Virus record (IMG/VR): IMGVR_UViG_2609460210_000005
Strand: one strand, 5' to 3'
Source: a virus
Lineage: Duplodnaviria; Heunggongvirae; Uroviricota; Caudoviricetes
DNA length: 36,067 bases
Position 1 is the stretch's first letter. Each line of letters begins with the position of its first letter. Below are positions 5,990 through 12,519 of this stretch, in pieces. The position numbers were made by a program, and so were the translations under genes. The notes below the pieces were generated by a model. The model was not told the origin of the DNA and did not search any database. It saw only the letters and a program-made list of their open reading frames with translations.

Positions 5990-6146
5990 CTGTTCCCTCC
6001 CTGTGCGGCATGGTCGCATGTGCGTGCGGAGGGGGTTACTGCTTTTTGTTGTCGCCGTGGCGGGAGAACGGCGCAGGGGTGAGATTGCGCGCGTGGTGGG
6101 CGATGATTGTTGCCGAATCATTTAACGGATACAAGGGGCTGAAGCT

Positions 6147-7329
6147 ATGAGTGAAACTCGTTTTCATGGTGTCCGTGTTACGGAAAGTACCGACCTGGTA
6201 ACAGCGATTAATGATGTTGATTCCAGTGTTATCGGTATCGTGGCAACGGCGGATGATGCGGACGCGGAGCTGTTCCCGCTGAACAAGCCCACACTGCTGA
6301 CCCGCGTCAATGACATGCTGGGAAAATGCGGAACAACGGGGACGCTTTATCGTGCGCTTAAGGCCATCGCAGACCAGGTGAGCACAAAGGTGATCGTCGT
6401 TCGCGTGGCTGAACACAAAGAAGAAGACGGAAAAACGCAGGATCAACTGGTTATCGGTGGTTCTGAATCTGACGGCAGCTATACGGGGATGTATGCGCTG
6501 CTTGTTGCAGAGCAGGATGAAAGCATCGGATACCGTCCGCGTATTCTGGCCGCGCCGGAGCTGGACACGGAGGCGGTAACAAAATCCCTGTGCGTGATTG
6601 CAGGTAAACTGCGCGCGTTTGTCTATGCCTCATGTCATGGCTGTGACACGATNGCTGATGCGATTACCTACCGCCAGAAATTCAACGAACGTGAGGTGAT
6701 GCTCTTATGGCCGGACTTCATCGCCTACAACCCGAAAAGTGGCAAAAACGAAACGTTCCCCGCGCCTGCCTATGCGTGCGGCCTTCGTGCGTACATTGAC
6801 CATGAGCAGGGCTGGCACAAATCGCTGTCCAACGTTCCGGTTAAAAATGTGCTGGGGATGTCCAGGCATGTGTTCTGGTCGTTGCAGGCCGAAGACAGTG
6901 ATGCCAACAGCCTCAACAACAAAGAAATCACGACCATTATTCGTCGCAACGGGTTCCGCTTCTGGGGTAACCGCACACCGGAAACGAACGCCTACATCTT
7001 TGAGGTGTATACCCGAACCGCACAGGTGCTGGCTGATTCAATTGCGGAAGCGCAGTTTGAAACCATCGACAGTCCACTGACGCCTGCGAACGTGAAGGAT
7101 GTTATCAGTGCCATCAGGCAAAACTGGATTCGCTGGTTACTGCCGGGAAACTGATTGGCGCGGAGTGCTGGTATGACGTGGTGGATAACGGCACCACGAA
7201 TTTACGTCAGGGACGTGTGCGTATTCGCTACAAATATACGCCCGTTCCGCCACTGGAAGACATGGAGCTTTACCAGTCGTTTACTGATGAATTCTTTGGT
7301 CCCGCATTTGCGGTGCTGGGAGGTGCCTG
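6147..7329 (+). CDS. FI: Tail sheath protein FI; reading frame broken near 7110-7120 (N-terminal 335 aa in one frame, C-terminus GKLIGAECWYDVV...YKYTPVPPLEDMELYQ in another)
   Basis: Strong similarity to P2 gpFI across both frame segments; single-base indel inferred at ATCAGGCAAAACTG. Confidence 0.8.
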
Positions 7330-7842
7330 ATGGCTGTACCAAAACATCTTCGCTTTTTTACGTTGTTTGTGGATGGTGAAAACGAAGTGGGTAAAGTGAC
7401 ATCCGTCACGCCGCCCAAACTGACGCGCAAAACCGACAGCTATCGTGGTGGTGGCATGATGGGGGCAGTAAGTATTGATCTCGGTCTGGACGACTCCGCA
7501 CTTGATGCGAGTTTTGTCATGGGGGGAGCTGTTCGTGCGCTGTTCCTTAAATATGGCGGCACGATTGACGGCACGCTGCTGCGTTTTGCGGGTGAATACT
7601 ACACCGATGCAGAAAGCGATCTGTATGAAATCGAGATGCGCGGGCGTGTGACGGAAATTGATATGGGGGAAGCCAAACAGGGCGAAGCCACATCACACAC
7701 TTACGCTGTCAAAAACACCTACTACAAGCTGAGCGTTAACGATCGCCCGCTGTGGGAAATCGACCTGTTGAACCACATCTACCGGAAGGACGGCAAGGAC
7801 ATTGTGCCTGACCGCATCCGTTCCGCGCTTGGGCTTGGCTGA
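7330..7842 (+). CDS. FII: Tail tube protein FII
   Basis: 170 aa; position after sheath; gpFII-like sequence. Confidence 0.85.
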   Translation: MAVPKHLRFFTLFVDGENEVGKVTSVTPPKLTRKTDSYRGGGMMGAVSIDLGLDDSALDASFVMGGAVRALFLKYGGTIDGTLLRFAGEYYTDAESDLYEIEMRGRVTEIDMGEAKQGEATSHTYAVKNTYYKLSVNDRPLWEIDLLNHIYRKDGKDIVPDRIRSALGLG

Positions 7843-7897
7843 TAAGTAATATGCAGGCGGCGCAGTGCGTCGCCTCTGACTGAAAAGGAGACAACTG

Positions 7898-8437
7898 ATG
7901 AAAGACATCGATACTGAAACCCGGAATAACACCGTGGCGGATGATGTGACGGCAGGTGAGGTTATGGCTGTCGAACGTGGCGTAAAACTGACCCGACCAA
8001 TTGAGCGTGGTGGCGAAAAAATCACGTATGTGGAGATCACCGGGGCTATTGAACAGGCTGGATCCCTGCGTGGTCTGTCGCTGTCTGATGTGCTGAATCT
8101 GAAAGCGGATACCATGTTCACGCTGTTGCCTCGCGTGACCTCGCCACGACTGGATGAAGTGATGATTNAAAAAAATGTCGTCACGCGATTTTATTCAGTT
8201 GTGCGCTGTGGCTGTAAATTTTATGAGCGAGCCAGACTCTGGCGCGAAGAGCGTGCAGGAGACGGCAGCGTAATCACCCTGGTGTGCTTTGAGCACATCG
8301 AAGATCTGGTGGCAGATATCGCCGCCATTTTTAACTGGTCGCCCGCCGAAATCTTCATGATGACGCCCGGCGAAGTGGTTAGCTGGCGTGAGCGGGCGGC
8401 ACTTCGCAGCGGGAATGCAGACAATGAAGACTCTTGA
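7898..8437 (+). CDS. E: Tail assembly chaperone E and frameshift-extended E+E'; A-rich slippery run at about 8165-8175 contains an N, so the exact E stop and the frameshift frame cannot be resolved
   Basis: Position between FII and T; N-terminal ~90 codons end at the poly-A run; overlap with T start as in P2. Confidence 0.6.
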   Translation: MKDIDTETRNNTVADDVTAGEVMAVERGVKLTRPIERGGEKITYVEITGAIEQAGSLRGLSLSDVLNLKADTMFTLLPRVTSPRLDEVMIXKNVVTRFYSVVRCGCKFYERARLWREERAGDGSVITLVCFEHIEDLVADIAAIFNWSPAEIFMMTPGEVVSWRERAALRSGNADNEDS

Positions 8438-12037: not shown

Positions 12038-12365
12038 AAGAATGTTGGCATGTGTAGAACACTACGGGATTATAAATAATTTCTGCGTTCTGAAAAGTCC
12101 TCCCTTTTAAGGAGGAGAGATCATACCGGTGTATTGTAATAACCCTCATCAACTCACGGAAGTGAAAGTCAACAACTGAACTTATTTTATGTATACAATC
12201 CACGCCGCCAGTTTAATTCTGTTTTCATCTCTGATTATGAGTGGCGGTAATTTACACAGCCCAGAGTTTTAATGTTGCCCGCTTTTATGATCTTTAAGCA
12301 CACCATATTAATCGCCTGCATATTACATCTGGTGCCATTTAAATACTTCTGACGCTGGTTTGAAA

Positions 12366-12480
12366 ATCTGGAGTTTACCGTCTGCTTTCAGTGGCGTGAT
12401 GTGGGGGATGAATTTTAGTTTGTTTCTGCGGGCGAATTACTGAATACGATTAGAGACGAATGGTGAAGGCTGCATTCTGA
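12366..12480 (+). pseudogene. Degenerate duplicate of the 3' end of gene U (roughly 80 percent identical to 11585-11700 by eye), frame-disrupted
   Basis: Anchors GCTTTCAG-GTGATG and TTCTGCGGGCGAATTACTGAA-ACG and GCATTCTGA shared between the two copies, each followed by a hairpin terminator. Confidence 0.7.
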
Positions 12481-12482
12481 AC

Positions 12483-12511
12483 AAAAAAACAGGGGCAAAT
12501 CCCCCTGTTTC
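12483..12511 (-). terminator. Hairpin ACAGGGG-CAAAT-CCCCTGT with a 7-T tract on the minus strand; terminator of the leftward tail-fibre operon
   Basis: Read directly; paralogous to the hairpin at 11709-11733. Confidence 0.55.
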
Positions 12512-12519
12512 CTGCTACG

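Follow-up and report, generated by a model that had tools for sequence, protein, structure and literature searches.

An inverted FI-to-U tail module in a P88/SEN4-type P2-like prophage of Escherichia coli and a predicted two-way late promoter between genes D and FI

The DNA analysed here (IMG/VR record IMGVR_UViG_2609460210_000005, 36,067 nucleotides (nt), in the following called the window) represents a P2-like (Peduoviridae) prophage of the P88/SEN4 type, which adjoins the gene flk in E. coli. Our analysis deals with its tail-shaft module, i.e. the genes FI to U, and with the orientation of this module relative to gene D and the late gene activator ogr. Genes were identified by tblastn with P2 proteins and by Pfam searches with the window proteins, which resulted in homologues of all seven genes of the Peduoviridae set FI-FII-E/E'-T-U-D plus ogr, with 36-48% identity to the P2 proteins. 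The co-directional order of P2 is not found in the window: FI to U are encoded on the plus strand, while D, ogr and the tail fibre gene H lie on the minus strand. A preliminary description of the sequence had already placed D and ogr on the minus strand and FI to U (6147-11700) on the plus strand, converging on the tail-fibre operon, and the tblastn and Pfam results bear this out. It had also stated that the P2 genes are co-directional, which is correct, since the P2 reference record has V W J I H G, FI FII E T U D and ogr all in one direction; therefore, exactly one block, FI through U, is flipped here. The canonical gene order is the layout of the P2 genus, and membership in the Peduoviridae does not require it. 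The genes and the gap in question are as follows.

4577-4837, minus strand: ogr homologue, 86 amino acids (aa), with an Ogr/Delta zinc finger CX2C-X24-CX4C (Pfam PF04606, E = 1e-15; 39% identity to P2 Ogr)
4880-5989, minus strand: gene D, 369 aa, baseplate hub/spike (Pfam Phage_GPD)
5990-6146: divergent D/FI intergenic region, 157 base pairs (bp)
6147-7330, plus strand: FI, tail sheath (Pfam sheath domains, Phage_sheath_1; 47% identity to P2 FI)
7330-7842, plus strand: FII, tail tube (Pfam Phage_tube, E = 2e-45)
7898-8273 and 8282-8437, plus strand: E and its frameshift extension E', tail assembly chaperones (annotation of the locus in E. coli Iso00225; weak match to Pfam Phage_TAC_7)
8424-11229, plus strand: T, tape measure protein (Pfam PhageMin_Tail, E = 1.5e-56)
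11236-11700, plus strand: U (Pfam Phage_P2_GpU, E = 9e-40)
12520-12804, minus strand: open reading frame of 94 aa at the end of the converging tail-fibre operon
12807-15653, minus strand: tail fibre gene H (tblastn with P2 proteins)

The length of 157 bp for the D/FI gap was likewise borne out, the start of D at 5989 being backed by the alignment to the start of P2 gpD and by a Shine-Dalgarno sequence (GGAGG) that precedes the ATG by 6-7 nt. A longer D reading frame of 413 aa, which reaches 6121, was rejected as an over-extension across the promoter gap, because both of these features favour the 369-aa version. Public annotations of gene D vary in length, with 413 aa in phage 500465-2, 366 aa in P88 and a truncated version of 266 aa in Iso00225; the annotations compared were 4880-6121 (minus strand) in the window, 10774-12015 in locus L002 and 6382-7182 in locus L004.

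It must be mentioned that the sequence quality of the window is imperfect. It contains 19 single Ns. A comparison with the complete genome of E. coli Iso00225 (locus L004) showed that one nucleotide is deleted at 7116 and that an N is inserted at each of the positions 8168 and 9011. The deletion and these inserted Ns alone split the open reading frames of FI (7116), E (8168) and T (9011), which are window-specific errors; all three genes are intact in Iso00225, with 1185 nt for FI and 2805 nt for T. Positions 1-25800 of the window are collinear with and 99.94% identical to the Iso00225 locus.

The Ns and the broken frames are what could be said in favour of an assembly artefact, i.e. a contig that is chimeric or mis-oriented at 5990-6146 and/or 11701-12520. 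We give this explanation practically no chance. The stretch 11000-13300 has 100% identity to at least eight complete genomes of E. coli, among them ST131 strains, 58 genomes cover at least 80% of it, and the near-identical E. coli copies are all collinear with the window. Dozens of RefSeq genomes contain the prophage of the window itself, and many independent complete genomes agree with it exactly at both junctions. Furthermore, the same layout occurs in isolated phages and in the 48 species-level loci described below. An artefact could thus be discarded on the basis of the junctions in complete genomes, the collinearity with Iso00225 and the locus survey. The preliminary description had regarded the arrangement as real and old and had proposed to compare its breakpoints with those of relatives; the same junctions were found in isolated phages and in dozens of complete genomes, and the arrangement is fixed across a deep clade.

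Regarding isolated phages, positions 4400-11628 of the window share 92-95% DNA identity with P88, P884B11, 500465-2 and the Citrobacter phage Shae_phiSM (90-95% when other P88-type phages are included), and the annotations of P88 and 500465-2 display the same strand pattern as the window. The same inverted layout exists in the Salmonella phage SEN5, and the phage collection holds 48 records with a D at least 60% identical to that of the window. P88 is inducible and lytic, and its close relative PhiSM has been characterised as a plaque-forming temperate phage (PMC6456863; PMC5285337); therefore, the inverted layout is compatible with function. Here we assume that PhiSM of the literature corresponds to the Shae_phiSM record. 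Hence, the FI-U inversion is the standard layout of the abundant, already sequenced P88/SEN4-type Peduoviridae, and as such it is neither unusual nor new. The papers on P88, PhiSM, SEN4/5, Serratia PP4, the Xenorhabdus tailocin, Burkholderia phages and the P2/P4 defence hotspots make no statement on the inversion, while the reviews of Casjens and Grose (2016) and Christie and Calendar (2016), which lay outside the search, could describe it.

At the other end of the module, where U meets the converging tail-fibre operon, the window departs from its closest relatives. The homology to P88-type phages ends at approximately 11628, inside U, and the last approximately 25 codons of U (from about 11629) form a variant C-terminus which is absent from the U of P88-type phages; P2 U aligns to window U over residues 1-127 only. 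The following features were found between U and the fibre operon.

11711-11733, minus strand: hairpin directly 3' of U with a minus-strand T-run and a plus-strand A-run, which may act as a bidirectional terminator
11734-12365: AT-rich non-coding filler
11832-11848 and 12020-12036, minus strand: terminator hairpins within the filler
12261-12352: fossil of a tail-fibre/tail-fibre-assembly gene junction, 92 nt
12366-12511, plus strand: degenerate direct copy of the variant U 3' end (psi-U) with a hairpin

The psi-U copy had been noticed in the preliminary description and is real: it matches the end of U collinearly in two parts, of 63 nt (79% identity) and 36 nt (83% identity), with a spacing of 780/781 bp, and it far exceeds the other repeats in the region. 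The 3' end of the fibre operon lies immediately beside this copy, and the hairpin at 12491-12505 has its T-run on the minus strand, therefore it terminates the converging tail-fibre operon. The copy had been taken as a sign of age as well, which could not be upheld. The full stretch 11640-12520 is restricted to 71 E. coli genomes and is therefore a local scar in a hotspot, which gives no evidence for the age of the inversion. The fossil at 12261-12352 is approximately 80% identical to the fibre/assembly-gene junctions of P2-like and SfMu phages. An Rfam search of 11600-12600 gave two matches which by far did not reach the gathering score (E = 0.17 and E = 0.54), i.e. no support for a small RNA in the U/fibre gap. 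The 94-aa reading frame at 12520-12804 (minus strand) is hydrophobic and sits at the place of the tail-fibre assembly gene G; it had no Pfam match, and its DNA is 88-93% identical to hypothetical genes of lambdoid phages. The 948-aa fibre encoded upstream of it has only the N-terminal approximately 130 residues in common with P2 H.

The P88-type relatives carry a gene for a DNA invertase directly beside U, and the fossil of an invertible fibre segment is kept at 12261-12352, which raises the question of whether FI to U is itself a switchable segment that is flipped by an invertase of the Gin/Cin/Pin type, as is the neighbouring fibre segment in P88-type phages. However, no inverted repeats link 5990-6146 with 11701-12520, where only chance-level matches of at most 21 nt were found, and no invertase is among the features annotated from flk to the terminase in Iso00225, the U/fibre junction included. 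Moreover, flipping would part D from its conserved promoter elements, and the loci are uniform, with 48/48 of the clade in one orientation and 31/31 canonical loci in the other. A switch of this kind is extremely improbable. As to the origin of the inversion, no sequence trace remains of a contribution of the neighbouring invertase via a secondary crossover site.

The locus survey mentioned above was based on a scan for D homologues in one genome per GTDB species, from which 80 loci were kept, and FI, FII, T, U, D and ogr were placed in each locus by local tblastn. The inverted layout, with FI to U on the opposite strand and diverging from D, was found in 48 loci, all with a D at least 61% identical to window D. 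These loci are drawn from more than 20 enterobacterial genera, namely Salmonella, Edwardsiella, Serratia, Erwinia, Pantoea, Enterobacter, Kosakonia, Klebsiella, Citrobacter, Pectobacterium, Brenneria, Xenorhabdus, Photorhabdus, Providencia, Morganella, Yersinia, Hafnia, Rouxiella and others. The canonical order was found in 31/31 loci with a P2-type D (approximately 50% identity to window D). The D/FI gap measures 122-198 bp across the 48 loci, and the window displays the layout of this clade, with D and FI diverging over a gap of 120-200 bp and U converging on the fibre operon. Neighbour-joining trees of D, FI and U each hold the bipartition into inverted and canonical loci and place the window genes on the inverted side. 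The bipartition is missing from the neighbour-joining tree of J, in agreement with the mosaicism that is known for the baseplate/fibre module. Among the outgroups, Pseudomonas phage Dobby has the canonical order and Burkholderia phage KS5 has U and D adjacent on one strand; therefore, the inverted state is derived. Taken together, the comparison points to one old, fixed inversion which defines a clade. Xenorhabdus genomes hold both layouts, inverted in L031, L034, L042, L044, L047 and L051 and canonical in L056, L067, L077 and L084; the latter possibly correspond to the loci of the xenorhabdicin tailocin in PMC13280938.

The discord of the J tree, the mosaic nature of P2-like genomes in general and the lambdoid-like DNA at the tail-fibre end of the prophage would also be compatible with a module replacement, in which FI to U were imported in the opposite orientation from another contractile-tail phage lineage. 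However, FI to U are as distant from P2 as D and the head genes: the identities to P2 (tblastn) are 36-47% for FI, FII, T and U and 48% for D, 42% for N, 47% for Q and 48% for V. Furthermore, D, FI and U share the bipartition in their trees, and the putative activator dyad of the FI promoter (pF) stands at the same distance of 82.5 bp from FI as in P2. An import is thus very unlikely. The simplest reading is that the FI-U block and its own promoter were relocated as a unit, within a single lineage. The segment comprising pF, FI, FII, E/E', T and U would have been inverted once in the clade ancestor and then fixed, with one breakpoint upstream of the pF activator site and the other at the U/D junction, where U and D overlap in P2. 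By this step U would have come to converge on the 3' end of the tail-fibre operon and FI to diverge from D. The new convergence zone would be the present variable hotspot, which in the window holds only decayed remnants and the duplicated 3' end of U, and in relatives a DNA invertase and alternative fibre segments.

Since FI to U are on the opposite strand here, D needs its own promoter. The preliminary description had proposed separate divergent late promoters for D/ogr and FI-U, to be found by a search of 5990-6146 for TGT-N12-ACA sites; this motif together with the Ogr zinc finger is the late-promoter logic of P2 (PMC3931495). A scan of the window for the exact motif gave 8 matches compared to 8.7 expected, none of them in a late-promoter gap. 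In its place, phylogenetic footprinting was applied to the D/FI gaps of the 48 loci, with the dyads picked under a constraint on their distance to the FI ATG. The predicted elements, which include a one-mismatch version of the site within the gap, are as follows.

6046-6069: predicted activator dyad TTGTTGT-N12-AGAAC (core TGT-N12-AGA at 6050-6067, centre 6058.5)
6102-6107, plus strand: -10-like hexamer GATGAT of pF, predicted start near 6114
6010-6015, minus strand: -10-like hexamer GACCAT of the putative D promoter (pD), predicted start near 6003
23986-24009: second copy of the TTGTTGT-N12-AGAAC dyad in the divergent O/P gap, counterpart of the shared P2 PP/PO site

The dyad TTGTTGT-N12-AGAAC has exactly two copies in the window, one in the D/FI and one in the O/P gap, compared to an estimate of approximately 0.004 matches expected for 12 specified bases. 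A third candidate at 19559-19582 with two mismatches was dropped, because it has no -10-like hexamer at the expected distance. A single central dyad is present in every D/FI gap of the 48 aligned loci, as exact TGT-N12-ACA in many genera, as TGT-N12-AGA in the subgroup of the window and as TCT-N12-AGA in Providencia (L033, L041), and the window dyad is orthologous to the exact sites of its relatives. In both clades, P2 included, a spacing of 82.5 bp between this dyad and the start codon of FI is the commonest. On the FI side, a hexamer nAnnnT ending 48.5 bp from the dyad centre was found in 43/45 unique inverted-clade and in 16/17 canonical sequences. On the D side, a hexamer at 48.5 bp occurs in 38/45 inverted-clade sequences (in five more at 49.5 bp) versus 3/17 canonical ones, which is background level, and the far side of the P2 pF dyad has no -10-like hexamer. 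By this sequence comparison the D-side hexamer is specific to the inverted clade. The rule of this geometry holds for P2 as well, where adding and subtracting 55.5 bp from the centre of the single annotated pO/pP activator site (3071.5) gives 3127.0 and 3016.0, exactly the annotated starts. The phage also encodes the cognate Ogr/Delta zinc-finger activator (PF04606), in which all four cysteines (CX2C-X24-CX4C) are present.

From these observations we infer that the D/FI gap is a bidirectional Ogr-dependent late promoter with one shared dyad. Thus, promoter-like elements do face both ways, as proposed in the preliminary description, but one shared dyad appears likelier than separate sites. The dyad-symmetric Ogr site, carried along with pF, would now serve both directions and would drive pF (FI to U, start near 6114) as well as the clade-specific pD (D and then ogr by read-through, start near 6003). 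That the inversion made a one-way pF two-way, with the other face of the moved dyad co-opted to drive D and ogr, is in our opinion a probable scenario.

Several points weigh against this scenario. The start sites, the Ogr dependence and the shared use of the dyad are deduced from conservation and geometry only, and the breakpoints of the inversion can only be bracketed. The window dyad TGT-N12-AGA is one mismatch away from the consensus; the PF and PO sites of P2 itself are likewise one mismatch off (TGT-N12-CCA). The D-side hexamer GACCAT is a weak -10, and the predicted pD leader of approximately 14 nt would put the Shine-Dalgarno sequence at the extreme 5' end. Furthermore, the loci are related, so that positional conservation could partly be inherited rather than selected. 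Nevertheless, the sequences of the spacers have diverged strongly, and the canonical clade acts as a control.

The weak hexamer and the short leader would also fit an inversion that is real, while D and ogr are driven by an Ogr-independent promoter or by a promoter elsewhere in the gap, the D-side hexamer being conserved for another reason, for example as a regulator-binding or structural element. Between the dyad and this hexamer there is indeed a conserved GCGCGCG-rich block to which no role is assigned. In addition, ogr has its own promoter in P2, and here the D-ogr gap (4838-4879, minus strand; 42 bp compared to 81 bp in P2) contains, approximately 30 nt before the start codon of ogr, a hexamer TAGAAT that could serve as the -10 of such a promoter. 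However, the D-side hexamer is exactly mirror-symmetric with the -10 of pF (48.5 bp), it is confined to the inverted clade by the counts given above, and the arrangement has the geometry of the mapped P2 PP/PO pair. Hence, we regard a D promoter independent of the shared dyad as rather unlikely. A single ancestral inversion, with the shared dyad now serving both directions, is overall very probably the best explanation of the locus.

The remaining late genes lie on the minus strand beyond the 94-aa reading frame, namely H, I, J, W, V, S, R, the lysis genes, X, L, M, N and O, whereas the plus strand encodes P and Q, after which comes the early region; int is at the right-hand end of the window. 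The S and V genes overlap at 18011-18014 and the P2-type orf30/pV intergenic region is absent; judged from this arrangement, the late genes O through H may form one transcription unit. Because there is no separate P2-type pV region, the map suggests that the window clade may run its late genes from only two bidirectional Ogr sites, one in the O/P and one in the D/FI gap.

At the left-hand end, the host gene flk (1-996, minus strand) is followed by a cargo region (1000-4400) of low GC content (approximately 37%) up to ogr. In the identical Iso00225 locus this cargo is annotated with TagO-like, zinc-ribbon, RES-family NAD+ phosphorylase and Hok/Gef genes; the RES gene is flanked by a 125-bp inverted repeat (2692-2816 and 4040-4161, 91%). 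In the early region, Rfam matches above the gathering score were obtained at 31681-31880 (minus strand) for C4 antisense RNA (31681-31769, 75 bits) and isrK (31806-31880, 64 bits), which represent a P1/P7-type c4/ant-style immunity RNA element within a P2-like prophage.

What do these results mean for the work with such phages? Neither annotators nor prophage-boundary tools that expect P2 synteny should take this layout as a sign of misassembly or of a degraded prophage. Moreover, the orientation of D and FI provides a clean and easily scored marker to tell apart two deep branches among the P2-like phages of enterobacteria. The predicted shared pF/pD site is possibly the only new element; in the searchable literature no description of such a two-way architecture was found for the P88/SEN4 clade. 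It would illustrate how a symmetric activator site lets an inversion split an operon without a new regulator. If true, the two-way promoter would create a short positive-feedback loop from Ogr via pD to D-ogr and would uncouple the expression of hub and activator from that of the tail shaft.

Compared to known systems, the closest similarity exists to P88 (Xuanwuvirus) and 500465-2 (Gemsvirus), which like the window have D on one strand and sheath, tube, E, E', T and U on the other, converging on the fibre operon. A difference lies in the interval from U to the fibre operon, in which P88-type phages have a DNA invertase together with alternative fibre segments and the window has only decayed remnants; the window further differs by its U C-terminus, by psi-U and by another fibre of 948 aa, which is followed by the 94-aa reading frame. 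SEN4 and SEN5 (Senquatrovirus) share the inverted layout, their U converges directly on the gene for fibre assembly, and their D is 63% identical, but they form a deeper branch of the same clade, have a different immunity/early region and have no invertase in the gap. P2 (Peduovirus) has the same gene set with the same internal order FI FII E E' T U, the dyad 82.5 bp upstream of FI and ogr downstream of D; unlike in the window, FI to U, D and ogr form one co-directional unit, in which U and D overlap. The D/FI gap itself resembles the PP/PO region of P2 and PP'/PO' of phage Smp131, where a single dyad TGT-N12-(A/C)CA lies midway between divergent late genes, with starts 55.5 bp to either side; in Smp131, PP' and PO' were assigned to one shared 18-bp site (PMC3931495). 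In contrast to these, the architecture of the D/FI gap is predicted only, and its operon pair, tail shaft versus D/ogr, is absent from P2. Finally, Smp131, in which V and W moved next to the F operon with matching promoter changes (PMC3931495), is like the window clade an example of reshuffled late-operon membership in a Peduoviridae lineage, although it belongs to another lineage and underwent another rearrangement, which does not include the inversion of FI to U.

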